Counted from the whole stretch's first letter, positions 2,513 through 54,300 are shown. The stretch is DNA of 60,183 bases, filler included, from Sluysia triapertura (GCA_046118255.1; 4 parts of 4 records of this genome joined end to end with filler, not necessarily neighbours in it), one strand, 5' to 3'. The notes: a model not told the origin generated them from the sequence alone. Numbers and translations: made by a program.

Positions 2513-3523
2513 ATGATGGAAATGTACCGATATTTATTAACTTTACAAGAAAAATTTAGTACATTTAAAGGCATTTTATCAGATCTTGAATGTTTTATGG
2601 CTATTAGAGTTGGTAGAGAATTCCAAGCTTTTATTCCAGTTTTACCTGCATATGTATACGATTTAAATGCGATGAGTAGTTATCATGTATGGACAGATTT
2701 AATGCATGATGACTTAAAAGATGATAAAGATGTTTCATATTTACTTTTACGTAACAAGTTCAATGTTAAGAAATTTTTAATTTGTATTTACGAACTTGAC
2801 TTTAGTATGAGTAGTTATCATGTATCGACTGATTTAATGCATGATGACTTAAAAGATGATAAAGATGTTTTATATCTATTTTTAAATAACAAGTTCAGTG
2901 CTGAAAGATTTGTGATTTCGAGAATGACTACGTTACTACCAAGTTTAAAAATTTTTGAAATTGAATATCTTGAAGTTATGTCATTTAGTTTTGACTGTAT
3001 ACGTTGGTACGAAAGTATTAATAAAACTACTATTTGTTCTAAATATTCTTTTTTATTATTAAATCATGTTATTTTATTCGAGTCACCGTGTTTTATCAAG
3101 AGTAGTAAAACTTCCTGTATTATTGTCTGCGGGAATGCTGATGGGGCGTTTCGAGCTTGGAGTGGAGAATCTGGATCGTGTTTAGCTGTAACATTCGGAC
3201 ACGACAACGCTATTGAACTAATCAGGCCGTTATCGGACAGATCATGTATTGAGAATCTAGTTGTGGATACATTTAAAATAAAAATTAATTTTAATAAAAT
3301 TTCAATATGTTTTTATAATGAATTTTGTTTTCAAATTTTTAAATTAAAATATTTCAAGTGCCTTAAGCACGAATCTTATAATAATGAATCGTTGCATACT
3401 AAAGATAAGATTAAAAAGTTAAAATCCAAGAATGATGAACAAACAAAAACCCCTACGCCCATTAAATTTGTTGTGTCTTTTATACCTTATTATTTTACAA
3501 ATTATCAATTAAAAATTCAATGA
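2513..3523 (+). CDS. Intronless chimeric ORF: ELM2-like segment (partly duplicated) fused to a WD40 fragment, possibly WDR12/Ytm1-like
   Basis: IRVGREFQAFIP matches the ELM2 signature IRVGxxYQAxIP. A 135-bp-period duplication starts at 2672 and 2807. FEIEYLE and IVCGNADGAFRAW...FGHDNAI form a WD40 repeat. The low-complexity C-terminus suggests a non-functional or young ORF. Confidence 0.5.
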   Translation: MMEMYRYLLTLQEKFSTFKGILSDLECFMAIRVGREFQAFIPVLPAYVYDLNAMSSYHVWTDLMHDDLKDDKDVSYLLLRNKFNVKKFLICIYELDFSMSSYHVSTDLMHDDLKDDKDVLYLFLNNKFSAERFVISRMTTLLPSLKIFEIEYLEVMSFSFDCIRWYESINKTTICSKYSFLLLNHVILFESPCFIKSSKTSCIIVCGNADGAFRAWSGESGSCLAVTFGHDNAIELIRPLSDRSCIENLVVDTFKIKINFNKISICFYNEFCFQIFKLKYFKCLKHESYNNESLHTKDKIKKLKSKNDEQTKTPTPIKFVVSFIPYYFTNYQLKIQ

Positions 3524-3586
3524 TTAAACAAATTCAAAATCTCGATATATTCTTTGAATTATCACAAAATTACAACTAAACGATGT

Positions 3587-3977
3587 TGTTAGACTTCATA
3601 AAATGGACTGACCGGGGATCATACCCGGGACCATCGCTGCGCAGTTCGATAGCTCTACCACTGAGCTATCAGCCCCGTCAAACGATTTTATTTTATTATA
3701 GTCAATTTTACCAAATGGCACTTTAGGCCTTTTTAACCCAACATATCTCACTAAATTCAATTATGTTTGTCCTCAAATATCATATAAATCATTAATTTCA
3801 ACATCAGAATGGTATTCGATATGTGGGCTCACCAAATGTTTGACTTCATAAAATTAACTGACCGAGGATCGAACCCGGGACCATTGCTCTGCAGTTCGAT
3901 TGCTCTATCACTGAGCTATCAGCCCGTCTGACGATTTTATTTTATTATAGTCAATTTTACCAAATGGAACTTTAGGC
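3587..3977 (-). mobile_element. TRIM-like non-autonomous LTR element with tRNA-derived LTRs (LTR 3837-3977, truncated; internal 3744-3836; LTR 3587-3743)
   Basis: Two direct repeats, the complete one with TGTT...AACA ends. Each holds a 72-nt tRNA-like unit (3604-3675, 3854-3925). On the minus strand the first LTR is followed by tt-TGGTGAGCCCACAT (PBS-like), and the second is preceded by a weak purine-rich AGTGAGATA. Confidence 0.7.
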
Positions 3978-4112
3978 AGCGTCCCTCAGCTAGAAAGTTT
4001 CCTTTAATCTTCTTAGCTCTATCTCTTTTCTTTTTTCTTACTGCTTATATAGCAGTTTATGATGCTTTTAAGAAATTAAAAATAAGAAATTGAACAAGAC
4101 GAAAATTAAAGC
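3974..4112. repeat. Unclassified interspersed repeat, copy 1; abuts and truncates the tRNA-LTR
   Basis: aggcagc(g/a)tccct...ctagaaagttt...actgcttat(a/g)tagcag...aattaaaaataagaaat(t/c)gaacaaga...aaattaaagc is shared with 22342-22506. Confidence 0.75.
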
Positions 4113-7100
4113 TATTTATTCTCTTTCAGTCGATAATAAGCCAACTGATTTTACTGATTGAATTTCGACAGCAATTTCCGTATATGTACAGATTAAATCT
4201 CATTATAATTATCTAATGATAATAGGATTTGTGGTAAGCAATCCATTTTATATTGTTAATATCATCTAATTAAAATTTAAAATCATTATTACAGTATCAA
4301 TTTGATATATATTTTACTAATACTCAGATATTGGAACATATTTAATCTTTAATTTTAAATTACAAAATTAATTAATTTTTACGTTATCTACATCGACGTG
4401 CTTGCAGCACTTCATCATTAAAACCACTAATAAAACTCAACATTATACACTTAATTTAATATCATTATATCATGAGCAAACATTTTTTATTGACTTATCA
4501 AATTAAATAAATTTTAATTAAGTAAATTAACAAAGGTACTTTAGTATTTTAACAAACAAAAACCTTGATTCAGGTATTTCATATACTTATCTTATCATTA
4601 CAATTTATCATAATCCCCTATCTCAATTCTTCAATGATGTTCACCTTATTCTGTTATCCTGAGTCTTGAACCTTTATATCTACCTTTACCTTCAATAATC
4701 CCAACAAATTACTTTAACTATGCTTAAATGTTAAATGTTCTACTCTGTTAAATTCCTTTTTTTAATAACAAAATATCAGACTTCCTTTCACTTCAAATAA
4801 TATTAAGAAAACATATCTTAACAAAAATATTATGATTTTCTTTCTATTTTAATAATCAAAAGAAAGCAAATTCAAAACTCTAAGGTGTATTATGTAACAA
4901 AATAGAATAGTCTTTTAACTAAAGCTGAATAATATAATAAATAATGCTAAAATAGATATAATAAATGACAAAAAACAATAAACTTTCAATAACAATATAT
5001 GATGTTAAATTATAATTAGAATTAACGTCTAATTTTTTAATATATGATTTTAACGTTAAAATTATTCATAACATAAAATTAGAGATATGTGAATTATAAA
5101 TTTGAGTAGGAAATTATTACTTATCAAAATAAGTGAACTTAGAATTACTAACTTACAAAATCTTCTTAAAAATCAGCAATCGGTTGTCTAAATCGTTCAA
5201 TAGATCAGGAGAAGTCTTTTTAAGAAACTTGTGCGATTGTTGTTTTATATCCACACAAAATTCAGATGTTGTTAGTTTTTAATTTAATTTATTTTATTTT
5301 AGGTACCATTAAAAATAAGTAAGTTTTGATTTATTTTTAATATAGTTAAATCAAATAGAAATCCAGAGCAAGACTAATTGTTTTTATTTACATTTATTTA
5401 ATATTTTGGGTAATTATTAATTATCATCCTCTTTATAATTTCAGACTTGGGTCGTTACATTACGATAAAAATTAATATTGTATTAATATAGAATAAATAA
5501 ACGAACGTGTAACTAAAAACTCTGAATTATTATGGTGAAAATTAATATTGTAAATTTGTATATTAATAATTTTGTAATTTAATTTTCTAAGTATAACATT
5601 TAGTAAATTTTAATAAACGCAGGATAATAATACATTTTTTCAATAAATTTTCTTGATACATACAACAAATAGTAATAAATTTAAAAGTAGTATAAAAGAA
5701 GTTTTACATACAATATTTTCTAAGCGATTATTAGACAATTTTTGATAGAGATTGGTTATTTTTCAACGATCTGGCTCAACCAACTCATTATTAACTAATG
5801 ATTTTATTCAACAATTTTAATTTGATTCGACCATTTCATTATCATTCAACGACTTCAGTAAACTATTCAAATAAACGATTTATTTTAACATTTTAATTTT
5901 AAATTTGAAGTTAAAAGTAAGTCTTACCTGAATTTAATAAAATACTAAATTAACTTTATCGATAAGGAAAAAATTAAAGTAACTGATAAATTCTTTCTTT
6001 TATATATTTACATATGAAATTTAATTGTTGTAGACTAACTGAAAAATAATTTTGTTTATATGTGTCAATAAATATTTAGTTTAAAAGTTTAGATTTTTGA
6101 AGAGATTAAGTAATAGTTATAGAATTTTAATTATGAACAAAGACAAGTATTGAACTTAATCACCAAAATTAAATTCATAAAAGAGATATTTAATAAATTA
6201 AACGGGGTGTTATTATACGTTTAAGATAAAGTCACAGAGAATTTAGGTTTAAGAAAGAAACTGGTAAAAGGTAAAAAAATTAGGTAAAGAATCATTTAAT
6301 AAAAGGTTAGATTTTAGAGCTCAGTCAGTAAAGAATTATGGAAAATAAATTTTGAGTGATTTGTTAGGTTATGAGTGAAATGTTAGGTAGTCATCACAAC
6401 CCTCTAAAATCATTAAAGAAAATTTTAAACATTTAAAATTACTTTAAAAATATTTATTTTCCAAAAAAGAAATTATTTTTCAAAAAAAAGAAAATTCACT
6501 TCTAAAAATAGAACAGAAGCTTCTAGAATATTCTAGAAAATTCTGTCGATTCCCATTGGCTGATGACTAGTGTATAACTAGCACCAATTTAATGAGATTC
6601 GCCATTTTTAAATTTTTAGTTTTTTTGTTAGCCATTTTCTTTTGTTCACGACATACTTAGTTAATCTATTGGCATCAGAACCAACTTTCCATGTATTGCG
6701 TAAGATATTTTTCTAAGATCATATAATATTTACATATTGTAAACTCTACGTAAAAATTTATTGTTAAACCTTAAGTTTTCCTCATACATTGAGGGATAAA
6801 ATACAAGAAGCATAATAAAAGACAATTAAAGGCCTCTACAACTTTAACTGTAACATTGAATTTTCGCCTTTTGATATCTTTGTTGTGGCTTAATATTATT
6901 AAAATTTCTTAAAGATTTTAGGTTAATATTAATTGGTTCATCAATGTAATTAGTCTTTAAAAAAAATAAATAATTGACAATCTCAAAAAAGGTAATATTT
7001 TTTAGAAACTTTGATTTTTCATTATACTTTTTCATTATAATTTCCAATAAGTTTTATTATGACATTTAAAATTTTTACATTTTATGTTTACAATTTGTTT

Positions 7101-8744: not shown

Positions 8745-9330
8745 CTCTCAGTATTAAAAATTCAACATTCCATAATTAAAAATTAATTAAAATTTGACTT
8801 TGCTCATTATTAAGGCTTTCCTTGAATGAATTCGGTCAAACATTCAAAAGTTATTCACAAAACTTACTTTTTCTTAATTAATTTAATTAAGATTTTAATT
8901 AATTAATTTATTTTTAGACTTAGTTTTATTTTATGTCTACTACTTAATAAAGCTATTACTTAATAAAGGCATTCAGGAGGCTCTAGAAGTTTTAACCTTC
9001 ACCTTTCTGATTCTTTTTTCTACTTCTTCATGTTAATTATTACTGTGTTAAACTTATCTTTATTATCTTGAGCAATGATTTTATTTCTCAAATATTTTAA
9101 AGATTTTAAACACTTTATAATATTACTCAAAGATCTTAGATGTTTATCAAAGTTTCAAGAATATTTAGAGGTTAATAAGGTCTTAGATGATCTCAAGATT
9201 AACAAGCCCAAAGGTACTTTAATGCCATCAAAGGTTTTTCAAGTCCATTTCAAGCTTCAATAGGTCTTTCGAACTCCAAGGTATTCTTCAACTGTTAACA
9301 CTGTTATAGATGTTTTAACTTTCATGATTC
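8745..9330. repeat. Decayed coding-like repeat, copy A (inverted relative to 10140-10775)
   Basis: Colinear reverse-complement similarity, e.g. aaggcattcaggaggct vs agcctcctgaatgcctt and aatttgactttgctca vs tgagcaaagtcaaatt. ORFs 9075+ and 10449- translate to similar peptides. Confidence 0.75.
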
Positions 9331-9593: not shown

Positions 9594-9685
9594 CCACTGA
9601 CTTATCAGCCCTGTATGACAATTTTGTTTTATTATAGTCAATTATACTATCATTATTCTACGGCACTTTAGGCCTGTATCCAAAC
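9594..9685 (-). mobile_element. Degenerate partial copy of the tRNA-containing LTR
   Basis: ccactga-cttatcagccc...ttttattatagtcaatt...ggcactttaggcct matches 3657-3730. Confidence 0.65.
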
Positions 9686-9820: not shown

Positions 9821-10139
9821 ATTTAATAATAATTTTTAACTTTAAAATTGGGAAGACATTTAGATTCTAAAGCTAAAAGTAAGTCATCTAATTTATCTAA
9901 CTTCCAATGTATACCCTATTTCACTATTTATAGTATCTGTATTTGGTAAATTTATTTATATTATAAATCCATTCAAAGATTATTCGGTAATTGATATGAT
10001 AAGATAGTATAACTATCGGTTCGTGCACAATGTTGTTGAAATGTGTCGTTTTATTGTGATTACCCAACCGTAGAAGAGAAGATGAATGGGAATTGCATGA
10101 AATCCTAAGTGCATGAAGAATTAATACAAAATGATGAAG

Positions 10140-10775
10140 ATGGAAACAATTATAATTGTGTTGAGAGTTGAATATTACCTTTGAATTCCAAAGACCTAAC
10201 TGAGATGTTGAGACATTGTGGAGGCTTGAGATGGATTTGAAGAACATCTAAAGGCATTAAGGTACCTTTAAATTTATGAACCTTGAGATCATCTGAGACT
10301 TCATTAACCTTTATATATTCTTGAAAATGTGTTAAACATCTAAGACCCTCGAGAAATCTTATAAAGTATTTAAAATCTTTAAGATATTTGAGAAACAAAA
10401 TCATTGTTATTGGTTTTAAGGATAAATATAGTATGGAAAGAATTAACATGTAGAAGTAGAAAAATGAATAAGAGAGGTGAAGGTGAAAACATCTACAGCC
10501 TCCTGAATGCCTTAATAAAAGCTTTAAACATAAAATAAAATTCTCTAAAAATAGATTAATTAATTAATAATCTTAATTAACTTAATTAAGGAAAAGTACG
10601 TTTTCGTGAATAATTTTTGAATGGGGAATTCTACATTAAATTGGAAACTGTGTATGTATTTGTTTTTAAAAGACCTTTTGATGAAAGTATGGTTTGAGTG
10701 AATTCATGCAAGGAAAGCCTTAATATTGAGCAAAGTCAAATTTTAATTAATTATGGAATGTTGAATTTTTTATAC
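10140..10775. repeat. Decayed coding-like repeat, copy B; the adjacent 10805-10925 also matches 4565-4690 in reverse
   Basis: Reverse-complement similarity to 8745-9330. ggataacagaatagg matches ccttattctgttatcc in reverse. Confidence 0.7.
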
Positions 10776-10945
10776 TTAGAATTGTTGGGATTGGTGAAGA
10801 ATAATGGTATATGTATAGGTCAAAACTAAGGATAACAGAATAGGTTCAGCATTATTAAAGAATTAAGATGAGGCATTATGATGAACTGCAATGGTAAGAT
10901 AAGCACATAAAATATTTAAATCGAAATAAAATAATGAGAGATACG

Positions 10946-13668: not shown

Positions 13669-13669
<1 letters not shown>

Positions 13670-13799
13670 CGTTAAATCTAGAATCAAGACATTATTAATG
13701 TAAACATTTTAAAATTAATTGTTATACAATTTATACAAATTCATAGATAATAAGGTTATGTACCTTTAGTTTCAAAAAATAAACTAGCTACCAGCTAAT

Positions 13800-13950
13800 G
13801 TTAAATTACTGAAAATTATGAAATATTTAATAAATGATAAAGTTATTTCTATTTCAGAAATATAATGAATGATTTATTTTAAGCGCTTTTGAGTGCTTAT
13901 TTAAACAGTAGATTTTAGCGTGTTATAAATTAACGTATTTTTATTATTGA
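13800..13950 (+). mobile_element. 3' end of an L2/CR1-type LINE
   Basis: taagcgcttttgagt...cagtaga...agcg...ataaattaa matches the tail of the LINE at 35520-36180 (reverse). Confidence 0.6.
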
Positions 13951-16911
13951 TTTATTAATTAAGGCTTGGAAACTGTGATAAACGTTCTAAGGTAAGAGCA
14001 CATTAATTAATTTAATTAATGTTTTTTGAAATATATTCAGCTAAAAGTGATATTTCTAGAAAATTCATGCACTAAATGAAATAACAGTTTTTCACAATAA
14101 CTTTTCACAATCTAGCTAAGAAAATTAATAGAAATAACACAAAAATTATTTTAATTAATTTTATAAGTTTAAAACAAATTTATTTCATAGAATGAAGGGA
14201 AAATGAAAGGCATATACAAAACGAAACTTTGATATGATTTCGAATCGAATGGTCACTTTCTAGGAAAACGTAATGTTAACATATTACATATCTTTAAAAG
14301 TTATTATAAATATGAAAAACTATCTAAATTTAAGTAGACTAATACAATGTTAATTAATGTTTAAGCGAGTAGTCAAAAGAAATATAATTAATCAAATTAA
14401 TCATTATTAGAAGATTAGTTACTAGACGTTAATTTATCAAAAGATTTTCGGCTTGAGTAAACTCAGAGATTGGCTATGCCTATACGTCAAAGCAATTGCG
14501 CTGAGGTAGCCAAATTCACATTTGCATGCATAACAGTTAATTATAAGGCCTATAATTCGGCCATTTTGTTTTGAATAATTTTATTTTAATTATTATTATA
14601 GTATTACTTTTTTTAAATATTATTATTATATTATTAATATTACTTAATTTTTTTTATTTGCAAACTTTTTCTAGAATTCTTCTTAATACACAAACTTCTA
14701 CATAAAATTAACTAATTATTTGATGTTTGGATTGAAGGTATTTCGTAGAATGAAAGAGTATTAACTTCTTTTCTTCTTATTTTAAGTACATTCTTTATGT
14801 TTGATCTTTAATTTCTTCGTACACGAAGTCTGAATCATTTCATATATTATTTGGTATTTACGTATCAGATAGTTTAGTAATGTTTAAATTGATGTTATAA
14901 ATTGTGAGTATATGATGCACGACGCATAAAGAATTATTTAGCGATTTCTAGACCTGTGATAAGTGCATTTACTTATTTATATTGTAATGTTTTAATATTA
15001 TGTAAATATAATTTATTCACGTTTTAGGTGATCTTTAGGATGAGTTTATTAAGTATTCTAAAAATGTGTGGATATAAAGTAAATTAAATGAGTTATGTTA
15101 TAATCTATGTTATATTTTAATATTGTATTCATGTCAGTTGTTTGGTTTTATGCAGGGTGAATTTGTCTAATATTATTATTATTATCATTTAATTTCTACG
15201 TAATCAATAAAAACATGATGACGTATTAACATGGTGAATTTTACATAAAGCATAAATTATACTCAAAAAAGATTTTCAAAATAACTAATAAAAGATTGAA
15301 ATGAAACAAAAATAAAATATAAATAAAAATTATAAATATAATAAAGTTTTTCATAATAATAATAATAATTTAAAAATTTTTATACCAGCAAGAATAACAA
15401 AACAGACTAATAAATTTTAATAATAATAGTAAAAATAATTTAATAATAATTTGTTAAAAATAATTTAATATTTGTTAAATTCTTAAAATTAAGTTTTAAT
15501 ATTTACAAATTTTGTTTGGAATATCAAAGGCTGTGGAATGTTGTTTGAATAAAAGAAAGAGATTTTAATATTAAAAAGTTAAATAAAATTGAAATAAAAA
15601 AGAATTAAGAATTATTTAGAGGTTTTAGATATTGGCTCGTGCATTTATAACTGAACGCTTATTTGTGATAGTTGTGCTTTAATTTTGTGATAATTGATAA
15701 GTGCGATTTATTATTTTGATTATTGTGTTTAAATGTGAATAATTTAGCAAATAATAATATTGTTAAATACACAACATATCGAATCAATAAGCAAAATTGA
15801 CAGTACGGTAAAACAAATAATTTAGAAATTTCTATGATAAGTTTTATTTTTATATATTACACTAACAATCTTAACCAATCATTTGCGTATAATATTAAAT
15901 TAAACTGAAATCTTAAGAACCGTTTAGACATTTCTTTAAACACGTTTATGAAAAGGAAGAAATCAAATTGATGATGTTCCATTAATTAAATGAATAAAAT
16001 AATTTTTATAATAATTTTAATCAATAACAAAAAATAAAATCAAATCTTTTAATAATGAAATTTTTACAATTCATATTTAGTCATAATAACAATATTACAA
16101 TAAGTTATTGGTATATTTAATGATTATGACTATAATAATCATGCCAATCAATAAATAATACAGTTACCTTGACTTGGCTATACGAATAGATGATAGATTT
16201 ATTCGAATGGGCTTTGCTTAAGTTGAATGTCAAAAAAATAAAGGATTATTTAAACTATTATTATAATTGTGGTTACGTCATGAAACATCGAATAACCATG
16301 TTTTAATTTGATTTTGCATCAAAAGTTTAATAGCATGTATTTGAATTATATTATTACTATTAATGTTATTATAATCATCAAAATTGTAATTATTATTAGT
16401 GTAAAATAGGATATAGCAGATTAATGATATTACATTTTCTGTGTTATCAGTAAAATAATAAAAATAGAATATATTCAAACAATTAAGATACATTACCGAG
16501 TTTTATTTTATTATTACAATGTGATAACTAATCTTAATTTCCTAACAAAGTTTAATACATTGTATTTTGATTAATTTTTTGTATTGTATTTGCGGTGGTT
16601 CAGCCGACGACTACGTACACATCACATAAATCAATAACACGCAAACCTTGCCTATATCATTCATAACATTACATTATTCATCGCTCCTTCAACATTATAA
16701 ATTCACATATACCTAATAAAATTTGTTTCATTAACATTCTAAATTAGAACAGTAAGCATGACACCCACTGTCAGCCTGTCGTCATTGTAGCACACCTTTT
16801 CTCGTGTCTAAAATTTTCCATTTTTATATTTTATATTTTTTACAATTTTATATTTTTGCGATTGTATAATTACAAAATTATATAATTGCAAAAATATAAA
16901 ATTATATAATT

Positions 16912-17149
16912 TTTTTAAAGAAATTAATTACTGATTCAGGCCCAGGTAGAGTGATGAAAAGATTGGTTAAAAATGTTGTTGTTTTCTTATCAGTGCTATT
17001 AAGTTTATAATCATTCTACCTGGGCCTGAACCAATGAGTGATACTTCACAAACAATTATAAACTTAATAGTACTGATAAGAAAAACATTTTAAATCAATC
17101 TTTTCGTCACTCTACCTGGGTCTGAACCAGTAATTAATTTCTTTAAAAA
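16912..17149. repeat. Nested ~238-bp hairpin (MITE-like) with a third copy of its core motif in the loop
   Basis: Arms ttttaaagaaattaattactgattcaggcccaggtagagtga... and ...tcactctacctgggtctgaaccagtaattaatttctttaaaa. An extra tctacctgggcctgaacca lies at about 17015-17033. Confidence 0.85.
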
Positions 17150-17369
17150 TAAGTTTTGCACAACTAAATCAATCTTTATATCATCACATACTCACGGTCT
17201 TCGTCAAATATTTTAAAATAACATTCAATATGATATTTTGTACCATAAAAACTACAAAATAAGAATCGATATTTATCATGAAAACATAGTCTTATAACAG
17301 AATTTGTCATTAGGACAAATATTGCATCGATGACTGAAATATGAATGTTAAATTTGTTTCAGATTGTTA

Positions 17370-17810
17370 ACCAGTTTGAGGTTCATGAGATAAATATTGT
17401 CCAACGAAATTGTTCGCTGTACTTGAAAGATACTCTGACTGGGGTGGTTGCAATACAAATTGTACAATCTTTTCCATGACTTAACTTAAATTTAATATTT
17501 GAATTATAATAATCTCGGGTGATTGAATCACATGTTCCGAGGATTATTTAACATTGGAATATTTTTCTTCCCAAAAATCCAATTTAGAACAAACATATGC
17601 ATCAACTGATTGCAGTTTATCAGTAGCTATTAGCTCTACTTTATTGATAACCTTCAATTGATTTTCACTCCATGTTAAAGTAGAACTAAGTATAATTTTG
17701 ATTCTTTATCCCTTGATAATATTCACGGGATAATCAGCTAGCCTTGACAATGACTTTAAACCACTATTATTTAGCTGAGAAGTTTCTTCCAGAATATTAT
17801 TATCAATCAT
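17370..17810 (-). pseudogene. Perilipin (PAT-domain)-like gene fragment inside the foldback element
   Basis: Translates ...LSRLADYPV...LSSTLTWSENQLK...LQSVDAYVCSKLDFWEEKYSNVK*SSEHVI..., then after frameshifts SEQ/FVGQYLSHE. Perilipin motifs are RVxxLP, YACKGLDxIEExLPILxQP and SExxVDQYLP. Stops at 17706-08 and 17544-46. Confidence 0.6.
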
Positions 17811-19066
17811 AGAGTAAATAGTCTTGAAAGCTTTTTAAAACATTTTGAAATAACTTTAAAATTATGATGCCCTATTGCATAGGTCATTGCTTTGACCTGT
17901 ACCTTTCATGTAAACAAAAAATAATCTTTTTCAGATATAGCATAAAATTAAAAATTATAAAAATTCGAAATTACAAGATATCTAAATATAAAATATAAAA
18001 TTATATAATTATGTAATTATACAATTGCAAAAATATAAAATTATGCAATTATAGAATTATAAAATTGTAAAAAATATAAAATATAAAAATGGAAAAATTT
18101 TAGACACGAGAAAAGGTGTTGTGCTACAATGACGATGGGCTGACGTGGGTATCATGCTTACTGTTCTAATTTAGAATGTTAGTGAAACAAATTTTATTAG
18201 GCATGTGTGAATTTATAATGTTGAAGGAGCAATGAATAATGTAGTGTTATGAATGATATAGGCAAGACATGTTGTAATGTATTTTTGCAATGATGTTTGT
18301 GTGTTATTGATTGATATGATTTATGTGATGTGTACGCAGTCGTCAGTTGACCCACCACATTATTATACTTGACGTTGATTTCGAAACTGGAGATCGAAAT
18401 CTGATCTCAAAGACCGCAACTGATGTCATGGCAAAAGATTTTAGAAAGGTAGAAAAAAAAATATAATGAATAATGTTTAACAAAAAATCAGTGTTTAAAA
18501 TATTAATAAAAAACCACTTTTGGAACAATTAATTCAGTTAATTAAGGAGTGTAAAGTATGGTCCCAATAATTGTTTAGAAAAATGATGGTAAAAATTGTT
18601 TGAAAAATGAAACATTATAATGCTGGTAAACGATAAATCAACAATGCTAAAGTTTACACTTTTCATCAAAAACAATATTGAAACATAAAATGGAGTAAAA
18701 CTATATGATGATCTACCTTAATCAGAGTTGATATTCCATGCTTTTCAAAAAAATTGACAAATAAGAACTTTAGATGACTCAGTTGATGCGGAAAAGAATT
18801 TGAAATCACTCTAAGTAAAGGACACACTACTACACAGAGTGTAAAATGTTACTTAATGGAAAAGTCAAAACTAATGAACAGTAAAATAAAAGCGCAAACG
18901 TAATTGTTTAAAATTAAAGGAAAATAAATACCGAAAATAAAATAAGTACGATTACATATGTCTTAGAGTGAAAAAACATTTTTAATGTTTTCCCATACTT
19001 AGGAAAATGTATTGTTTATACAAAAATGCATATACATTAGGAAAAATTCAAACAAAAAAGACAAAC

Positions 19067-20886
19067 CTCTAACATGCAATCAACCCAACCCCCATGACCC
19101 ACTTGCAAATTCCGTACTATATCCAAGTCAAGATCAATTACAACTCGATTTCCCATTTGAATACCTTGACTCGTACCTCCAGAATTTGTAAATCCTAACA
19201 ATGGTAAATGATCTTTGTAAACAGAAAGCCCTTTAGCTTCTACCACAACCTGAAATCAAAAAATATATTCTAAATTGTTATTTTAAGATTACTATTAAGT
19301 TATGGAAAAATTACACAAAAGTGAGGTTTTCCTCGCGTTTTATTAAGCGCAGCCTGCTTGCAGAATTTATTTCAGTTTGTTTAGCTAAAATATTTTGTTA
19401 AAGTTAACATAAATTAATAATTGACTCAGTTGGAGAAAAAAATTAAAAACTATATTTCCATACCAGAGACAAGTCAAAAGTACGCACAATAATTTACAGT
19501 TATAATCATAAAATAAAGTGAGTAAAGATAATGAAACATCGATTTTCAATAAAAATATAAACCTAAGGTATAAATTATCTCATTATTTAAAATATCACTA
19601 AGAATACAATTCATATAATATAAAGAAAAAAATTTTTAAAAATTAATTCACAATGTGCACTGAGAACAATTACCGCATATCATGCTTAAAAACAAAATAA
19701 TAAAAACATTTTAATTATGTCTTTTAAAATTTTATGTATTTCATTATATGTTCATTACTAGAATGCGATATTATAAGATTCTACCATCATTTATTTTATT
19801 GTGATTAAAATGTTTATTTCTTCCTCAATAATTTTTATTTAAAACTATTAATTAAACTGTTAACTATACCTTTAAATCTGACATTCCATCATGACCCACT
19901 CGATAAAGATTTTTGCCACCACATTCCCAAATAACATAAGCAGCCGATCTCGAAGAGCTACCACACCAATCTTGAATTTCTGTAACTTTACCTTTATGAC
20001 CTGCCCCTCCGTCTTGATCACTCCATTGCCAATCTACACCACGAACAACTCGAGCACCTGTGAACAATCCTTTGCATAACAATTTTTTACTTTTCCGACG
20101 ACATTCTACAACCATTTTACTAAAAAATAAAAACCTTTATGTTTGTAATGTAATACACAACTTTAAATTATGAATGTTATAATAATTATATTATAACTAT
20201 AATAATGAATGTCACAAGGATTGTGTTATTTTACTTAAGTCGCATAATTTTAATATAAAGAAATATACAAATAAAATACAAATATGATAAAGTAAATATG
20301 ATAAATACAAATGAAACTCATTACAAATTTACCTTCATGAAATTTTAATAAATTCAAAAAACTTATGAATTAATACAAAATAAATAAAAACGGAGAATAA
20401 AACTTACGAAGTATTATTTGGATATATAATTCTAACAAAACGATGGCGTAAGTTATGCCGATCTCCATGATAACATAAAGAACATAAATCTGTATTTAAG
20501 CATTCAATACATTTCCAGCGAATACCTGTAATTGGATTCTAAATCAAAAATATGCATTTGATTAACAAATTTAAATTCTTTAAATACAAAACAATATGTT
20601 TAGTAAGAAATATTCAACATACCTGATGACAATATTCACACTTTACGTCAGCATGTCTCACTCCAGTGGGTGCATTATCAACTATGCGTAAATCATAATT
20701 TGAACCACATCTATAATTTGCAGCAGTGCCATTATCCCAAACAACGACAACTTCTTCGGCAGATTCAAAACTTCGTACAGTTCCCATATGACCTTCACCA
20801 CCATCTTGGCGATTCCATTTCCAATCTGGTCCTCTCATAACACGACTCCCAATGTCATCTTGGAGAAATTTTTGAGTTGCTGACAT
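19067..20886 (-). CDS. mib1: E3 ubiquitin ligase mind bomb, 5' part (exons 20886-20623, 20538-20408, 20119-19870, 19249-19067): MIB/HERC2, ZZ finger, MIB/HERC2, start of MIB repeat
   Basis: [21 protein letters not shown]...[17 protein letters not shown] finger [16 protein letters not shown]...[36 protein letters not shown], and YKDHLPLLG...LQVGHGGW. All junctions are GT-AG with consistent phases. Downstream exons were not found. Confidence 0.95.
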
Positions 20887-22341
20887 TCAAGAGTATTCGA
20901 AAGTAATTTTTAATTGTTGAAATAAGTGAAAGTAATTGGAATTGATTTTAAAAAGTTTAAAAATTAATATAAAAATTGTTATCAATTTTGTTTTATGGCA
21001 TAATTTTTATCAAAGTACAATATAGTTTCATGTTAAAAATTGAGTTTAAATTTTTTATTATCATTATGAAAAAATTGATTAATTTAAACAAAATTAATTA
21101 TTTATTTTAAAATTTTTATTTAATTATTTGAAATATTATGAATAAGAAGTTATATTAAAATTGTTCACTAAAAATTATAATATTTTAAATTAATAAAGAT
21201 AATTATTATAAAATTTTGATATGCACAAAACAAGTTTATTAGCCACCAATATAGTTTACTCGTGATTAATCTTCTAGCATTTGTAGTATAAACAGTTTTA
21301 ATCAAATAGACTATGTCTTTACTTAACCATCAAACTTAAGCGACGAAATTTTGTAAACATTTAAGTTAATCGTTTCACTTAATTTCAGATAACATCCTTG
21401 AATATTTAAACTCAAACCTTGAAATAAAAATATAATTAAGACATTAAATACATCACAAAAATACTAATAAAAATTAATAATACATATAAGTAGAGCTTAT
21501 ACCACAACGATTATAAAATCTAGTTTCTGAAATGAGGTCCAGATACATTGTTATAGTTAAACCAATACTAAATTTGACTAAATAAAAGTAATTTGTTAAA
21601 TATTCTTTATGGCATTTAATTCTGCATTGAAAGTTCCAAAGTACCATTTCCGTTAGAGTATTTTTCAAATGTAGTAGTAAAGAAAATTCTAAATATAAAG
21701 TAATTATTATTTTATTAATTTTTTATCATTATTAAAATGTTTAATCATTGTTTTATATAATTTTTATCAATCTTTTTATTTTATTATTTTTTGTGTCGCA
21801 TTATTTTTAAATTTTACGTTTTATGTGACCTTAAAAGTAATGCGAAAGTAATTCTATTTTTATAATTACTTAAATTTTTAAAAGCGATATTGAAGTTTGT
21901 AGTAATAATAACTGTATCATTAAAAGCAGCCATAATAACAAAAAATTGTGAGAGTGATAATAATGCAAGGTTTAATATGTTGTGTCTTCTAATACTTTTA
22001 TTTTCCCAAATTATTAAATTAGAACTCAATAACTAATAATCCATATATTCTTTATATTATCATAAGATTACAACTAAAATATTCTTTTAATAATAACAAT
22101 ACAAACTATTCTTTGCAACAATAATTGTACACATTATTCATTATAACAATATGAATTATTCTTCAATGACAAATATTAACCAGGGGTGACACAACTTATT
22201 TAAATTTTCGCACCCGTATTAATACAAAATATAATCAATATAAAATTATTCACTAACCCTTATTCCTCTAACTCTCAATATTTATTTTAATCAATTACTA
22301 AAGAATAAGCCCTGACATCACCGTTAATCACAGATGAATCA

Positions 22342-22506
22342 AGGCAGCATCCCTACAACTAGAAAGTTTTCTTTAATTTTCTTAATTCTTGTTTCTATCG
22401 CTTTTCACTTCTGTTTTTCTTGCAGAAATGTAACTGCTTATGTAGCAGGTTTTATGGTAATTAGAAAAATTAAAAATAAGAAATCGAACAAGATGGAAAT
22501 TAAAGC
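22342..22506. repeat. Unclassified interspersed repeat, copy 2
   Basis: Colinear with 3974-4112. Confidence 0.75.
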
Positions 22507-22892
22507 GGTCGATTTTTTTAGTGGACAGATTTTTTTAGTTGAAGAACCAATCAGATCAGTTGTACATTTTAGTGTAATTATTAACTACTCCCATCAGTTA
22601 GAAAATTTTTATTATACAACTGTTGCACTTATTAACAATAATTGTGCAATTACAATTAAAACTTACAATTGACTATTTTTATACAATTATGAATAACATT
22701 TTTTGGTAATATTTTGTTATATCAACTTTGAAAGATGCTCTCCGCTTATTATATTGATATATTGAATAATATATTCAATCCTACAAATCCTAACGATCTA
22801 GTGAATATTTGAAAATATGTTAAACACTACAATATTAGATTAAAGATGAATAACAAATATAACATAATATTCAATCGCTTTTAGGAGCTAAT

Positions 22893-23150
22893 ATGGCGTT
22901 ATGTACAAATGAATTTAATAGATTAATTTTAGAAAGTCAAAAATTGCAAGATGATACTGGAAGAATCAAATATACTTTGGATTATTTACCCATTTCATTA
23001 AATTATATCCGAGAAGATCTTCAATTCAAATGGATTAAAATTAATAAAGAACAAAACCATGAAATTGTCATTTATAATGTTTGTTTTCAGTTCCTTTATC
23101 CTAGGCTCGATAGTAATGTTCTAAAACAATTTATTCATCAAAATTTAGAG
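22893..23150 (+). pseudogene. DNA primase small subunit (PRIM1-like) internal fragment
   Basis: FNRLILESQKL...LDYLP...CFQFLYPRLDSNVLKQFIH resembles the PriS motif LQYxYPRLDxNVSKxxNHLLK. It lacks the following KSPF and the N-terminal catalytic motifs. Confidence 0.55.
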
Positions 23151-38597: not shown

Positions 38598-39131
38598 CGA
38601 TATTTTATCTACAACTGCACTCCAACTTGATGATGTTTGTACACCAGAAACTGTATAACCTCGTTTATGCTCTTTACGATTCTTTTCTCTCATAGATAAA
38701 GCACCTTTAAACCAGAGTGGTGCTAATCTTTTACAATGTGATAATAAAATATGTATAAATAATGCTTCTGATGGTTTTGGATTGGATGGATTATTAGAAT
38801 TACAATTAATATTAGGATTGTTTGCATTACCGACTGAATTAAGATCATTAATACCGGTAGTATTATTAGTAGTCGTTAAATTTGTCAATGCACCAATTTG
38901 ACCACTTAATCCCATTGAATTGGTAGCAGAACCTATGCTACCAATATTAAACTTACTGGCAAATTGATTAAATCCGTTATAATGTCCATTAGAAGCTGCT
39001 TGTTCGGATAATAAGTAATCTTTGTCAGATAATAGATATTTTGGGGACAGAAAATCATTTTCATGGTAATGTAAAGGATCGATATCGCTTGTATTACTTT
39101 TTACATCAATTTGCAGTGGATCATGAGAATC
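38598..39131 (-). CDS. 178-codon exon of an unidentified gene; possible first exon at 39912-39856 (MDDYMKVEKRLSMEVDVSN)
   Basis: tttag acceptor at 39133-32 and GTTAGT donor at 38597, with a stop-free phase-0 frame. An Asn/Ser-rich linker precedes a structured segment EALFIHILLSHCKRLAPLWFKGALSMREKNRKEHKRGY. Confidence 0.65.
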
Positions 39132-43089: not shown

Positions 43090-43535
43090 TAAGTCTTTCT
43101 GAATTACTGAATCAAATGGTACATTAATACAACCACAACTGTCAATGACAGAAAGACCAATGGACAAGCTTCGTTTTCCAAGTGTAATCGCCAAACTTGA
43201 TAAAAGACCATTTACTCCATCATAGTGTTCATTGTGATCTGCCGAATAACCGAGAATATCTTTGAATTCATTGAAACAGTGGTAATATTGACAAATTTTA
43301 CCCTATTTTGAACATTCACTAGTTGGTGTAGTTTCATATAGGCAGAGAGCCATCTTATAATGTTTGATGTCATTAACATAACTCGATAGATTTATATACA
43401 TAGGTTTATTACTATCATAAATGATGTAACTTTATTTGTCATGACAAATGAAACTAAATCTATTAATTTGTGAGCCATTAGAAGTACGTTAATGGGTACT
43501 GGTATAGCATGAACACCGATTGATAATATTGATCT
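43090..43535 (-). pseudogene. Second, more diverged Unkempt-like CCCH fragment
   Basis: One frame with three stops containing IKHYKMALCLYETTPTSECSK*GKICQYYHC (Unkempt YYKTxxCxxETDxxGxCxKNGxHCAFAH). A GT-AG intron-like interval follows at 43086-43033. Confidence 0.5.
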
Positions 43536-46500
43536 ATCAATACTTTTATCTAGCATTATTGATTTGTATTTCAAAGTACGTATATTTTGTACTTTGCTTA
43601 ATCTAACATAGATTTCATTAATTTTAAAATTTGAAAAGTTTGTAACTTTCGCTAGTACTACATATAAAAGCTAAAACCAAAACATAAAACCCAAAAGCTA
43701 AAACTAATTTTTTATTTGAAATTACTGGATAATTATTCTGGTTTTTAAAATATTGTAATAAATCACATCCATCTACACATATACCATCTTTTATTTGATT
43801 GCTGTTAACAGAATAAACAATATAATCACTTTTAAATTATCTACTTCACTAAAGTTGAGTAACATATTTCTAAAAACATATTTAGGTGACACGTAATAGA
43901 AAACTAATTGTCTTTTGAATATTCAATTCATTTAATGTAAGCATCCAGAAATTATTTTAACGTCTATTTTAATTTATAAGTAATATTGAGAAATAAAAAT
44001 TTTAATGACACCTTTTTTATAATCGTAATTATCAATGAAGTTACAGCTCAATTATGTTGTACAAAAATTTTTAATAATAAATTTTAATAGATACTCTTTT
44101 AAAATGAATGATTTGTGTGTCGATTAACTTTTCTCACCTTTGTTATTACTTTTTGTGTCACTGTGTTTGTGAATTAACTACGATTGGGCATTCAATCAGG
44201 AGTACAAAAGTAAGTAGTAAAACAGGACCGATTGGATGTCCAATTACAAATCACAGAAAATGCAGATCAGACATCTGCGTAAGTGACAGCTACTAGTTGA
44301 CAATCATAGCGGTAAATTATTGATTTTTCAATTTAAATCAGTCAGCTAGTGACAGATGCAATGAAAAATAATGGTTTTGTGATTGATTAATGATAATAAT
44401 AATAATATTAAAAAATGATAATTATAATAATGATAAAAATTATAATAAATAAACAATATTAAATAGTAATAATAATTATTATTATTATAATTATAATAAT
44501 AATTATTATTATTATAATAAATAAACAATATTAAATAGTAATGATAATAATAATAATAGAAATAAAGTAATGTCCTTTCTAAACACGATCTTTCTTATAT
44601 TTGATTCTCATTCTAAACTTATAATTAAATGAATTTAGAAAAAGTGAAATTCGTTGACTCAAAGTTACTAAAAACCATTAAAAGGTGTAAATGCTTGAAT
44701 GTGAATGAATTGAGCATTTGGAATGTTTTGAGTTAATTTCAAGATATATGCATGCAAATTTAAGGTGTAAATTGAGATTCGAATGTTATGAGATAAAGAA
44801 TAAAAAATGTTTTAAATAAATTTTTAAATGTATAGGTGGTTTAAGATGTAAATTGTAATTCTGGTGTGATGAAATAGTGGATTAGATGTTGACAGATTGT
44901 AACTTTGAAATGTTTCGAGGTAGGAAAATTGTTTTAGTTAATCTGAAAGAAATAAAATATGAAAAAGGTTTTGACAGAAAAATAGGTAAAATGTTATGGA
45001 ATGTTATTTCATGTACGATGTTTTGAATTGATTTTTTTAAGTATATCTTTGATGATTTTCGGTATTGCATATGATTTTGATGTTATGAAATTTTATGTTT
45101 AGAATGTTTGGAAGTATTAACAATTATGAAATGTTCTGAAGAATAATTTTTTTATATTTTGTTGATATAAAACTTCAAATTACTGGGTTGGCCACACAAC
45201 ATGTGTACTTTACCCATTTCATACCTTAAAACATATTTCAATGTGCTATTTTAAACTTGATACTAGTTTTCTGTTCTGTAGAATATATCCGTTTTATCAT
45301 TATTATTATCATTATCATTATTATTACTATTGTTGTTAGATTTAAGAAAACTTAACGCAAAGTTAACAATATTCGATTTGAGTAATTATAACTCTTTGCA
45401 AACTGAAAATATCTTTAAATATACTCTTTATGTGTATTGATAATAAATATACAATTTATTATCAATAACTTTATTTAGATCTTGTGTTTTCAAAATTTGC
45501 TTTCAAATTATCTTTATAGAATCTCATTTTCAAATGATTATTTTTTAATTTTAATCTACAACTAATTGTTATTTGTTCTTAAATTTTGAATTTATATTGA
45601 CTCTATTAAATCTCATTTTAAATTGAAGAAAAGCATTATAATCTTAATGAAAATTATTTTAATTTTACTTTAATAATTTTTATTTTAAATAAATTTAAAT
45701 TAAATCAATTTTAGATTTTAAAAATTAGTGAATATTATTATTATTATTATTGTTGTTATTATTATTATCTATAATCGCATTATTAATTTTCTATTAATTT
45801 TTATTAAATTTTATAATTATAATTATAATAATTATTATTACTTTTTGAAATAATATTAATTTTATTATAATTTTTAATTATAATACTGGATATAAACCTG
45901 ACGCATACCTAGTGGATGGGACAATAACTCACAAAATTATTATCTTATATTAATTATGATCAACGATATGTTGTTCAACGCAAAGTATATTTCATTCCAA
46001 CCCACAAATCTTATCAAACGATAAGAAACAAGTCATCTTTGCCAATAGAATTTTAACGGTTTCGACTTATTCGTAAAATTAACTCAAAATTTTAGCTAAT
46101 AAAATTATAGGTAAGTTATGATAAAATAAAAATAAATTTTATATAGAAAGTGGTTATGAAGATGGTTATGAATTGCTACGTAAGGCATTTTTAGATAACT
46201 AATATTGATGACTAGTCAAATCGTAGAATCACTTAAGTCAATAATAAACGTATTAGCAGACAAGTCAACGCAAGAAGATGTAAACATTCTGTAAATAACA
46301 TGTCTAAAATTTGCTGTAGCTTAAACTGATACTATTAACTTATTAAAATATCTCGAGGCAAATCTTTGAAAGCACCATTAACCTACATAAGAAACCTTAT
46401 CTAAAAATTAATCTTTCCTCGTAGCTATCTAGATCATGAAAAGATTAAAACAAAACATCATCTAAATTGTGTCGTTTGCTTGCAATCTTAGACGAACTTT

Positions 46501-48279: not shown

Positions 48280-48282
<3 letters not shown>

Positions 48283-48336: not shown

Positions 48337-48338
<2 letters not shown>

Positions 48339-49306: not shown

Positions 49307-49406
49307 NNNNNNNNNNNNNNNNNNNNNNNNNNNNNNNNNNNNNNNNNNNNTTAATTAATTAANNNNNNNNNNNNNNNNNNNNNNNNNNNNNNNNNNNNNN
49401 NNNNNN
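49307..49406. other. Artificial contig linker N44-TTAATTAATTAA-N44
   Basis: Same spacer as 10946-11045. Confidence 0.97.
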
Positions 49407-50432: not shown

Positions 50433-50568
50433 TGTTGGGGTAAAAAGCCTAAAGTGCCATTTGGTAAAATTGTTAGACGGGGCTGATAGCTCAGTGGTAG
50501 AGCATCGAACTGCGCAACGAGAGGTCCCGGGTTCGATCACCGGTCAGTCCATTTTATTAAGTCTAACA
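50433..50568 (+). mobile_element. Solo tRNA-containing LTR (tRNA-like unit 50480-50551)
   Basis: TGTTGGGG...CTAACA ends. GGGCTGA/TCAGTCC acceptor stem, A box TAGCTCAGTGG, B box GGTTCGATC, then TTTT. No TSD retained. Confidence 0.8.
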
Positions 50569-51378
50569 TTAATATTGATTTAATTCTCCATTAATACCTT
50601 TTATATGAGTTCACATTTGACATTAAGTGATTGCACTACTTCATCAAAACTATTATTTATCAATCTCGGTAAGTTTTTCATAAACATTCATTTGCGAAAT
50701 CCTTTAAGCAAGCCATTTCGTACGACTTGTACCAACTCATTAATTCATGTCACTTGTGATCACAGGTTATATTTACATTAAGAAAATTACTTCAAAGATA
50801 ATTCGCCGATTTGTCCAACGGATGTGATGCTCAAGGCCCGAAGATTAATAAAAATTCGGTTCCACATAATTTAAATAATTGCCACTTATAGCTTATGCTG
50901 AGGATTACATATTATCCTCTCAAGGCATCACAATAAAGTATTCATTTGATGTTTGAAAACTAATGTAATTCAGAATAATTATCAAGCAGATCATAAATTA
51001 TCCATTAATTACCTTTTAAAATCGAGTTCTTATGCTTAGTATTAATTAGCACCACCATAAAAATATTATTTTTGGAATATATGGGCGTTACATACTTAAG
51101 TTACTAATTTTATATATTTAGGCGTTGCCCGAATAATTGAAAAAATTATTAATTATTATAATTATTGTGCAATGCTAATTAAAGGATGATGACCTTAGGA
51201 CTTGACAATTTATTATTTTAATATTACTATTTAGTTCTGATGTTAGATTCGTACATTATCGAATATATTTTACAAAAATACTAATACAATTTTGATATAT
51301 AAAATATATTTTACAAGAGTAACTAATGCCAAACAATGACTACAAAATGAAAAATGCACTTCGAATCAAAACTGCCTT

Positions 51379-54300
51379 TCAACAGCTTGGTGATAGTCTT
51401 AAACCTCCATCAATTCTTATAAATGCGCCATTTATCATTCGATTTTCAGTAATCTTTTGAACACAATGAGCAAATTCATCTGGATTTCCAAATCGTTCCG
51501 GATATAATGTGTAAAAAACATAAAAATCTTTTAATTTAGGACACATACTTTCATTTCCATCATTCGTAAAAATGCCTAAATTAAAATTTACAATATTTAT
51601 TCGGAAATATGTTCATGTTAATTTAAAAATAAATATAATTATTACGTATATTAAATTACTTTAACGAAGAAAGAAATTAAATTAATACCAGATAACAGTT
51701 AACATAAACGAAATTAGACAGACTAACGAAACTGATATCTAAACTTATTTTAAAAAATTGTTTCATCGTTTAAATTTTGTTATAAATAAAATAATTTTAA
51801 TTTATTATATTTTTCTTTCTAACAAGGGATTGGTAACAGAAATAGTGGACAGAATAGAGAGTTATAAAATAAAAGTATTCTTTAAAATAATCGAATAAAG
51901 TATTTGATCTTGAAGCGTAGATATATAAAATAAATAAAGGTCCAGATAAAGAATAGAAATTTAATTAAGCAATTAGTAACTAATAAACACCTCCATCTCG
52001 AGTAACTGAGACGAGTATTCGAGTTCACACTTCCAGATAAGGCAAATGTAATAGACAAAGTATAGATATTTTTGCAGAGTTAATCAATAGAGAAAATTTA
52101 CATTAGTAAAAGATTGTAAATCCAAGTAGTAATATAAAGTGAGAATGCTATTAAAGAAGTTTAGATTATTACTAAAAAATAAGAGTTCATTACAAGCACA
52201 TACAAATTCTGTAAAATAAAATACAACATAATAAAACCACATTAATATTTTTTACACACTCTACAATATGACATTGTACTGCTATCATTTTGTTACTGTA
52301 TTATTGTTCTATCACTATGTTATTGTTATTATTCCTTTTTTCTTTCTCCTGTTACTTTATAACTCTCTCTATTATTTTAGTATTACTTCTTTTGTTAAGT
52401 ACTACCACCCCCTGCTGCTCAATAAGGTACTGTGATCGCTGAACCATCGTAGATGTCTAACAATTGTGGTCAAATTTAAATGGAAGTTCCAACAATTTTA
52501 GTAATACTGAATTAAATTAACTATGTCTTTAGCAGATTTTTAAGGTTTGAAATGATAAAATTGTTAAATTCGTAACGTAATATTGGTTTGCTTAATTTTT
52601 GAGCTTAATAGTTTGAACAAATTTTTAAATTAATTATGTAATAACATAGTAAACAAATTTAAAATAATAATATAGTTTACATCACATATATAAACAAAAT
52701 TTCATCTCTAACATATATCAAAACATACTCTGCATATGCCATTGAATAGCATTACTTAATTCCAATAACTTTAAGCACATCTAAACTATTACTTTTATTT
52801 ATTACCATTATTAAATTTTAACTTTTCTAAAACATTAGTCATTCTGATGAAATCTAAAAATTCAATTATTATTATTATTGTACAATTCGAAAAAGGTAGA
52901 TGCCATCATAAACATTAAAGATTGCAATGAGTCTTATTATAACGATAATAAGTAATTAGCAATGCTTTAATTCACATTTTACAGTTATATATATTCTAAA
53001 GCTAAGTCACTTGTTTAATGGGTTATTGAAAATACATTGTGACCCTGCTTAATGAATTTTGAGAGTGAACCAAAAGTGTTCAAAATGAAGAATCTGTTTA
53101 AGATATTCATTATTCAGAAGTTTTGAATTCTGAAGTTCATGACTATAGTATCGATTTTTATAGGTTTTCAACTGGTGAAAGTGAAGACAATTCGAAAACA
53201 TGGAAAGATTACAAAATGAAGTTTTACCTAGAATCGTTCGTTTCTTAAAAACAGAATAATAAATTTTTAAGGTTACTTTAAACAATCAACTGTTGAAGCA
53301 AAACCCAATTGGATAGAGTAGAATGTATTGAGAAAGTATATGAATTAAATTAGAAAAGGCGTAAAAGCTTAATTTTGATTCATTGAGCCTGCGATACTGG
53401 TTGTACAGATATAGCTAAATATTTACTCGATATTGATGTTTCTTTTAAATTATTGAGTTCAAAATACGTTTCTCTATTTGTTTGATTGCTTATCAAAAGA
53501 GAAAGAGAAATGATTTATTAGACCAAGTTCGATTAATGCGATCACTAAAATACCATGATATATCTAGTATTAAAGATAATTCTCTTAGTAATTTATGCCT
53601 TAATATAAAAGTTTGTAAACGAAACAATGAATCAATTAATAAATTATTTTTAAAAAAAGTTTTCGTTATATTTTTAGAATGTTTTAAAGCATCTATGGTC
53701 CACCATTTGCGTGATGCTCTAAATTGTTCGCACGATGAACATATTATTTATGAAGCGCTGCCTCCTTTTTCTGCATATGTGGAAAAGAACGCTATTACGT
53801 TAGAACATTATTTTACGCTCTGTGATCCAAATTAGACTTTAAATATTCTAAATATTTTTTTAAAAATACAATAAATCTGTGCTTACTTTGTAATCTATAA
53901 CGATAATAACATCAAAGTTAAAAATTCCTTAATCACTATAATAAAAATAAAGTAGTCATTATTAAGTACGTTATAATGATACAATTAAATGTCCTCAAAT
54001 GTCATTAAATTTAAAGCTTAAAGCACTAAAAGTTAAACATTACTTTCACAGTATTCGCATAGTATTTTATAAAAAGTAATATACAAAATATTTTGTGACA
54101 TTTTAATAATTTTTACTTAATTAAATCAGTAAATAAAATTTAGAAAATGAAATTTTTTTGCTTTTAATAATAAAATAATTTAGAGAAATTTCTTTCTTCT
54201 AAATATTGATTCCCTTTGTTTAAAATATCATAAATTATTTGTTATAATTATGTTTCTACAAATTCAGCAATATTGTTTCATTTTGTTAAGTCATTTTTTC

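Follow-up and report, generated by a model that had tools for sequence, protein, structure and literature searches.

Host-gene fragments, TG-started G-poor arms and a multicopy VARP–Unkempt chimera in Sluysia triapertura DNA: possible cargo of Pack-TIR-like elements

A stretch of 60,183 nt from the genome of Sluysia triapertura (GCA_046118255.1), referred to here as the window, carries pieces of several conserved genes, among them a joined fragment of VARP (ANKRD27) and Unkempt that exists in many diverged copies. The window is animal DNA of 24% GC and consists of five contigs, with three of the four gaps represented by uniform 100-nt pads; no gene fusion spans a gap. Capture and shuffling of gene pieces by jumping DNA is common in plants, but is seldom found at such density in animals. 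The initial annotation had described scrambled host-gene fragments at unusual density across the window, a density that we judged against the literature only. All of its coordinates held. Of the eight pieces named, four are firm (the VARP N-terminus, two copies of Unkempt finger 3 and one WD40 repeat), two are weak (ELM2 and ankyrin) and two are unconfirmed (perilipin and primase); a further frame at about 25650 likewise gained no confirmation. In total, 329 open reading frame (ORF) entries, from 920 ORFs of at least 28 aa, were scanned in bulk. Apparently unrelated matches at E 0.004–0.013 were returned by 5 of 300 bulk-scanned ORFs, and E values of 0.001–0.02 are therefore treated as near chance level.

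The VARP piece (37214–37564, plus strand) corresponds to the N-terminal part of the protein, with one stop inside and one just after. It matched P0143 with an E value of 2.2e-5 among 1.84 billion proteins; blastp gave 34% identity over 116 aa, and PDB entry 9NVT was matched at E 0.097. On the same strand lies the Unkempt finger-3 exon with an Unkempt-derived tail (37670–37920, the finger itself at 37676–37850), with an AG at the conserved intron position. The finger matches the Pfam family zf-CCCH_UNK (PF25427) at 6.2e-10 (39.3 bits, above the 31.1 cut-off) and PDB 5ELH at 3.5e-8, and the tail behind it aligns with Unkempt's own linker in two matches (37%). Both pieces are multicopy. They share one reading frame, with two stops between them in the window copy, and occur together in none of 88 library matches. 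A protein search with the VARP-finger ORF returned nothing near its length, and the finger ORF had no match in the metagenome scans. A TG-started leader (36880–37213, plus strand) precedes the VARP piece; around the start of this leader, the depth of contigs rises stepwise from about 1x to 4–5x.

A second, much diverged but firm copy of Unkempt finger 3 lies on the minus strand (43096–43430, finger at 43258–43368), with one stop and an AG in front of it. Its Pfam score of 24.8 bits (2e-5) is below the 31.1 cut-off, but its own profile gave 3e-5 compared to 1.6 for the best reversed control. Frames without an assigned family lie upstream of it (43431–43865). Thus Unkempt is indeed present twice, on opposite strands and with profile support for both copies; no third finger was found in the window. 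An alignment of both fingers over 86 aa gives 26% identity, with no match at the DNA level, so that they do not stem from a recent local duplication; the initial annotation had likewise preferred another process to ordinary local duplication for the fragments as a whole.

A very abundant repeat follows the VARP-finger unit (38002–38087, plus strand), with an inverted copy at 36096–36180. It had no Pfam match and appears to be LINE-like. The two copies were considered as terminal inverted repeats (TIRs) around the unit and rejected, as their depth is 9,000–76,000x and each continues as a common repeat. Pieces of this LINE-like sequence are found at 35510–36180 (minus strand), 13753–13948, 33654–33743 and 38002–38087. 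The copies around VARP-finger are truncated at almost identical positions, and one of them is in frame with the finger ORF.

Copies of the VARP-finger unit were sought among the contigs of a public sequencing run, X1, that matched region 36815–38080 at 80% likeness. The run behaves as genomic DNA and may be the source sample. A difference-free non-coding X1 contig with a depth of 18.7 served as the reference; summed contig depth relative to it is a rough measure rather than a true copy number. A total of 3704 contigs matched, falling into identity classes of 772, 1108, 1069 and 755, and the longest pieces among the diverged contigs listed had depths of 13–21. Relative to the reference, the summed depth was about 1x at 36815, 4–5x over the leader, 60–245x over VARP, 22–92x over the linker, 29–113x over the finger and 8–13x over the tail. 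Regions of high summed depth include GC-richer bins, while the AT-rich leader bins stay low (4–5x), showing that the effect does not come from AT content. Of the two public runs that contain 36900–38080, the other, X2, had only traces of depth 2 on the VARP-finger cassette, which were not used as evidence.

VARP is joined to the finger in frame by two single X1 contigs with shorter linkers (net 279 and 117 nt). Eight joints were listed with their letters; leaving out two in the abundant repeat, the frame is kept at four of six. The first stop of the window copy is a sense codon in 28 contigs. From the family majority, the window copy has 40 listed differences (366 more lie beyond these), 32 of which are in frame after the ATG. 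Eight of these 32 are synonymous, compared to 20–25% expected without selection, indicating that at the listed sites the copy drifts neutrally, like a pseudogene. The VARP-finger unit is thus multicopy and no assembly chimera. The copy count and the dN/dS-type comparison cover this unit, the sole locus with testable copies, and the initial annotation's counter-case, that each fragment is single-copy and belongs to a normal gene or an assembly chimera, fails there.

The finger itself retains a trace of its parental gene structure. Among 87 Unkempt matches, 5 lacked an anchor and 12 were too short upstream, leaving 70, of which 24 have finger 2 upstream and 46 do not. In all 46 matches without finger 2, position −19 is R or S, encoded by an AGN codon in which the AG comes from the intron and the third base from the exon. 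In the window copy, the codon at exactly −19 is AGT and homology to finger 2 is absent; the second copy likewise begins behind an AG. With the acceptor retained in register, it is most likely that the finger was taken from an unspliced genomic template.

A perilipin-like piece lies inside a 1769-bp unit with inverted arms (16591–18359). The left arm (16591–16913, plus strand) starts with TG, and the right arm (17997–18359, minus strand) ends with CA and contains inner 8-bp subrepeats. The arms are 94.6% identical over 296 aligned columns, and the similarity ends exactly at the TG and the CA. A nested 238-nt foldback (16912–17149) has arms that are about 94% complementary and a DNA fold z score of −20. 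The cargo frame (17386–17905, minus strand) is broken by stops and is in sense with the right arm; it may be perilipin-like, by likeness of a motif, and it gave no relevant match in Pfam, PDB or NCBIfam. The flanks match at four of five positions, a candidate 5-bp target-site duplication (TSD) with a chance of 0.037 for one length, seven lengths having been tried. They match at only two of four positions at 4 bp and two of nine at 9 bp, and a Pack-MULE TSD of 9–10 bp is therefore lacking. This was the one unit with long TIRs at both ends. Its inner subrepeats and foldback recall the FB-type TIRs described in excerpts of PMC8277862.

Two of the remaining pieces form a single open frame of 336 codons, ELM2+WD40 (2513–3520, plus strand), compared to 89–151 codons for the longest frames in 20 shuffles. 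Only 95 nt of sequence precede it before a gap, and its end overlaps the beginning of an arm at 3469. The ELM2-like piece (2603–2728, plus strand) is weak (Pfam E 0.001, 20.4 bits with a cut-off of 21.7), with no ELM2 match in the PDB. The WD40 repeat (3110–3226, plus strand) is firm, with a Pfam E value of 0.0014 and a PDB match to FBXW7 of 1.2e-13 summed over repeats (13.8 bits for the best single repeat). The frame also contains a 135-nt in-frame internal duplication. Of the two in-frame fusions claimed initially, this one is open throughout, while VARP and Unkempt share a frame but are separated by the two stops.

The 111-codon open frame at 22893–23225 (plus strand) had no match in Pfam, PDB, NCBIfam, Atlas (none usable) or the large protein search, and may be primase-like, by likeness of a motif. 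On its 3' side is a weak PUS7L R3H-like piece that the initial annotation had missed (23568–23693, plus strand; Pfam E 0.0017–0.011). The frame at 25600–25960 (plus strand) has 8 stops in 120 codons and no support in Pfam or PDB. A lone Hook coiled-coil exon with AG and GT ends (29343–29555, plus strand) is either cargo or an exon of a large host gene. The ankyrin-like single repeat (53330–53482, plus strand; Pfam match at 53345–53440, E 0.017) is weak; two exons of a short-chain dehydrogenase gene flank it, on the opposite strand.

Several of these pieces are preceded by G-poor arms that start sharply with TG and fall into at least three subfamilies, alpha, beta and gamma, which do not align with each other beyond the first bases. 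The alpha arms are at 3469–4190 (plus strand, TG start), where two tRNA-like repeats interrupt (3587–3977); at 15669–15776 (minus strand, an arm start whose cargo lacks an identification); and at 21978–22566 (plus strand, TG start), 915 nt before the ATG of the primase-like frame. The beta arms are those of the two-ended cassette; the beta arm had no match in the metagenome scans. The gamma arms are at 28268–28480 (plus strand), 1.07 kb in front of the Hook exon, and at 44805–45201 (minus strand, TG start), leading toward the second finger. The alignments between arms (3469, 21978 and 15776; 28268 and 45201) begin within 10 nt of the TG starts, with z scores of 7–21 against local shuffles, and each subfamily has members that face each other. 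TGTNR is found at seven of the eight arm starts, a pattern that was partly built into the search.

The ELM2+WD40 frame abuts a gap and is thus outside the six pieces that could be tested for a leader. Four of the six have a TG-started leader 0.3–1.3 kb upstream and in sense, three of which are G-poor arms. The distances to the first ATG are 0.45 kb for the perilipin-like piece, 0.92 kb for the primase-like piece, 0.33 kb for VARP and 1.34 kb for the second finger. The leader at 36880, where the depth steps up, is an independent case. No arm was found for the ankyrin piece or the frame at 25650, which may be unrelated debris, and no leader or hairpin common to all loci emerged from 272 pairwise tests of 17 regions.

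CCAAT boxes were observed about 330–380 nt before the cargo start at two arm-led loci (44190–44240, minus strand, and 22545, plus strand); two of the boxes are 48 nt apart, and the cases are few. An older inverted pair, 76% alike and linked to the alpha arms (8746–9329 with 10130–10780, and 4567–4707 with 10782–10922), surrounds 800 nt that had no Pfam match and that may include a motif like that of reverse transcriptases.

As a tentative explanation, which we favour but hold somewhat short of probable, most of the pieces would be cargo of non-autonomous Pack-TIR-like DNA elements with Gypsy/Ginger-type TG...CA ends, in which pieces of host genes are copied from genomic DNA, joined and spread. 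The G-poor arms with their sharp TG starts, which precede several pieces in the same orientation, would be the element ends, and the perilipin-like cassette would be the unit that shows both of them. The arms may act as both TIR and inward promoter. Pieces would be gained when the template is switched in the course of gap repair or at stalled forks, a process that the subrepeats and foldbacks of the arms would promote, and the retained Unkempt acceptor would be the sign of an unspliced template. Captured once, the Unkempt finger-3 exon could have become a common 3' module to which varying N-terminal cargo is joined, as the two copies in the window suggest. Amplification, which the VARP-finger unit exhibits with its many diverged copies, would be carried out by an integrase-like transposase acting in trans, and the window copy would have drifted neutrally after its break-up, consistent with the partial list of sites.

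The systematic capture-and-shuffle process originally proposed is partly supported: the multicopy VARP-finger unit, the two-ended unit and the G-poor arms speak for capture and shuffling on mobile cassettes. One single system does not emerge, because there are at least three arm subfamilies without alignment beyond the first bases, no common leader, and two pieces (ankyrin and 25650) without an arm. Of the three mechanisms named at the time, a Pack-type process fits best, Helitrons are without support, and retro-recombination is weakened by the retained acceptor and the lack of a direct-repeat pair. A more far-reaching version is possible but on balance doubtful: a novel family of elements whose TG...CA inverted arms supply the promoter and whose captured finger exon is a common acceptor, with dozens of housekeeping pieces exchanged on its 5' side; every chimera would then be multiplied into tens or hundreds of copies, of which some stay open and are expressed.

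A number of observations weigh against Pack-TIR-like capture. The only two-ended cassette is the one whose cargo label is unconfirmed. No TSD was found for five other arm pairings, including 3469/15776 and 28268/45201, two facing pairs whose members possibly inserted independently of each other; among the alpha arms, the pair most alike (3469/21978) has direct orientation. No transposase of matching type was present among the window ORFs scanned. A TG-started leader is expected by chance at 0.24 per locus, and three of the four loci had already been seen when motif and distance were chosen. The independent leader at 36880 has little G-poverty (28 G, 38 C) and no alignment with any other arm. 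For the retained acceptor, there are only two weak in-phase donors. Most importantly, the depth rises about 16-fold at the start codon and drops behind the finger. Values of 4–5x for the leader and 8–13x for the tail, compared to 60–245x for coding sequence, are not as expected from uniform transposition of whole cassettes. This steep rise is the main fact for which the favoured model gives no good account; coding-level selection, in source genes or a gene family, or an exchange of arms would agree with it.

Capture by long terminal repeat (LTR) retrotransposons is a real rival, since TGTNR ends are common to Ginger transposons and Gypsy LTRs (PMC2836005, excerpt), although we consider it unlikely. 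The arms would then be Gypsy-type LTR ends, perhaps Burro-like, and template switching by reverse transcriptase among co-packaged RNAs would generate multi-parent chimeras; partial chimeras of this kind are typical of such capture (PMC5131818, excerpt), and both VARP+Unkempt and ELM2+WD40 have that feature. On this reading, the two-ended unit would be an inverted dimer of LTR ends still accepted by the integrase. In each of the five arm-led cases, cargo and arm share the same sense, residues 1–121 of VARP form one uninterrupted frame, and a remnant of a mononegavirus-type fusion glycoprotein lies at 59197, recalling the planarian Burro elements with their ankyrin repeats and mononegavirus-like env (PMC6431247, excerpt). 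By analogy, a Burro-like element may have left this remnant as its env, and both it and the ankyrin piece may thus be retroelement debris rather than host captures. However, no direct-repeat (LTR) pair closely enclosing cargo was found in the window, where gaps may hide partners, and no polypurine tract abutting the TG starts was seen by eye. In addition, the Unkempt piece keeps its genomic acceptor and lacks finger 2, and the best unit has inverted arms of 300 bp.

Less probable again is a lineage-specific chimeric VARP-N plus Unkempt-finger gene family of single origin, spread by segmental duplication under selection, with the other pieces as unrelated pseudogene debris of a repeat-rich genome and the arms as incidental. 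The depth tracks the coding limits, as described above, four of the six joints with known letters keep the frame, no leader is universal, and the ELM2+WD40 frame is open for its 336 codons. Nevertheless, the window copy drifts neutrally and has two stops, and four in-frame joints out of six have a chance of about 0.1. This reading also leaves unexplained why inverted arms ending exactly in TG...CA surround a coding-like piece, and why the same finger follows different front parts.

Capture by Helitrons or Helentrons, through read-through of the rolling-circle terminator, is very improbable. Multi-fragment capture at the DNA level is typical of them (PMC6431247, excerpt) and would agree with the retained acceptor, but TG...CA inverted arms are not Helitron ends, and the hairpin-plus-CTRR 3' end was absent from both strands (0–2 in shuffles) in a strict scan that would miss decayed or Helentron-type ends. 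The examination of flanking termini that was initially advised thus yielded the one cassette with TIRs and no Helitron end. An assembly artefact, whether unrelated contigs joined together or a chimeric assembly, is hardly credible and for VARP-finger largely refuted: despite the padded gaps and a MIB1 gene that stops after four exons, separate contigs cover the leader-to-VARP and VARP-finger joins in diverged copies.

By analogy, the favoured Pack-TIR-like process would work like Pack-TIR or Pack-MULE capture. Close parallels to the putative cassettes are animal Pack-TIRs, above all Drosophila Ssk-FB4, in which long inverted repeats with internal repetition enclose a piece of host sequence; they are non-autonomous, multicopy after capture and moved by an unknown enzyme, and DNA template switching has been proposed as the capture route for Ssk-FB4 (PMC8277862, excerpt). 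FB4 is MULE-like, with 9–10-bp TSDs and TIRs of about 700 bp (PMC8277862, excerpt), whereas the present cassette has TG...CA ends and a candidate 5-bp TSD. A survey of 100 genomes counted 370 young Pack-TIRs, with a median of 4 in 55 species, and most were single-copy (PMC8277862, excerpt), unlike the chimera described here, which joins two unrelated genes in tens to hundreds of diverged copies. Ginger1 and Ginger2/Tdd elements share TGTNR termini with TIRs, and TDD-4 and TDD-5 make 5-bp TSDs; Ginger TIRs are 40–270 bp long, with 4-bp TSDs (CCGG/CCGT, or RTATAY targets), and passenger host fragments are not reported in the excerpts of PMC2836005 from which these features are taken. The arms in the window are longer, about 300–360 bp, and were found with no transposase among the ORFs scanned, without which the cassettes cannot be classified as Ginger.

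LTR-mediated retrocopies, including maize Bs1, are similar in being partial multi-parent chimeras behind an element end that are amplified as non-autonomous units, but they are mRNA-derived and need two direct LTRs (PMC5131818, excerpt), in contrast to the kept acceptor and the lack of an LTR pair here. Plant Pack-MULEs and Helitrons show a comparably dense capture of multiple host-gene fragments (PMC6431247, excerpt); the window differs from them in its animal host and in lacking a 9-bp TSD (2/9) and a CTRR hairpin end. Unkempt finger 3 (PF25427, 5ELH) and the VARP N-terminus (9NVT) are homologous to the pieces in the window, which are small parts of these parents.

In animals, gene capture by TIR transposons is regarded as rare, with most cases present in one copy (PMC8277862). 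A genome with one 60-kb window that combines a cassette with both ends, a number of arm-led pieces and a multicopy two-gene chimera would be an animal counterpart of the rice Pack-MULEs, and would offer many events on which to study how genes are captured, how domains are shuffled and how genes are born. Cassettes of this kind in flatworms were not described in the open-access literature searched, and the portion of the Dugesia genome preprint consulted (10.64898/2025.12.11.693146) contained nothing informative on them. As a warning, annotation of the S. triapertura genome would be full of false paralogues.

Spliced exons of host type are also present in the window, namely four of MIB1, the Hook exon and those of the short-chain dehydrogenase. 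The MIB1 exons (19058–20886, minus strand) encode the well-conserved 5' part, approximately aa 1–282, with about 70% identity to animal matches. No further MIB1 exons were found in the 19 kb downstream; the copy may be truncated, the next intron may be very long, or gaps may conceal the remaining exons. The multi-exon short-chain dehydrogenase (51382–58400, minus strand) appears to lack the usual catalytic Tyr/Lys pair. A TG-started, mildly G-poor stretch at 58837 (minus strand) lies about 0.45 kb upstream of it. The only transposase found in the window is a broken pogo/Tigger type (30680–32000, minus strand; DDE_1 and HTH_Tnp_Tc5).

The fusion glycoprotein remnant is of mononegavirus/chuvirus type and broken (59197–59538, with 58871–59074, plus strand; Pfam PF24664, E 7.6e-7), being interrupted by a tRNA-like repeat. 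Five copies of this tRNA-cored repeat, one of them partial, are found in the window (3587–3746, 3837–3977, 9594–9675, 50433–50570 and 59072–59216), two with Rfam tRNA matches. An Asn/Ser-rich open frame of 181 codons (38589–39131, minus strand) gave an SH2 lead in Atlas, with a score of only 0.76 (below 0.9).

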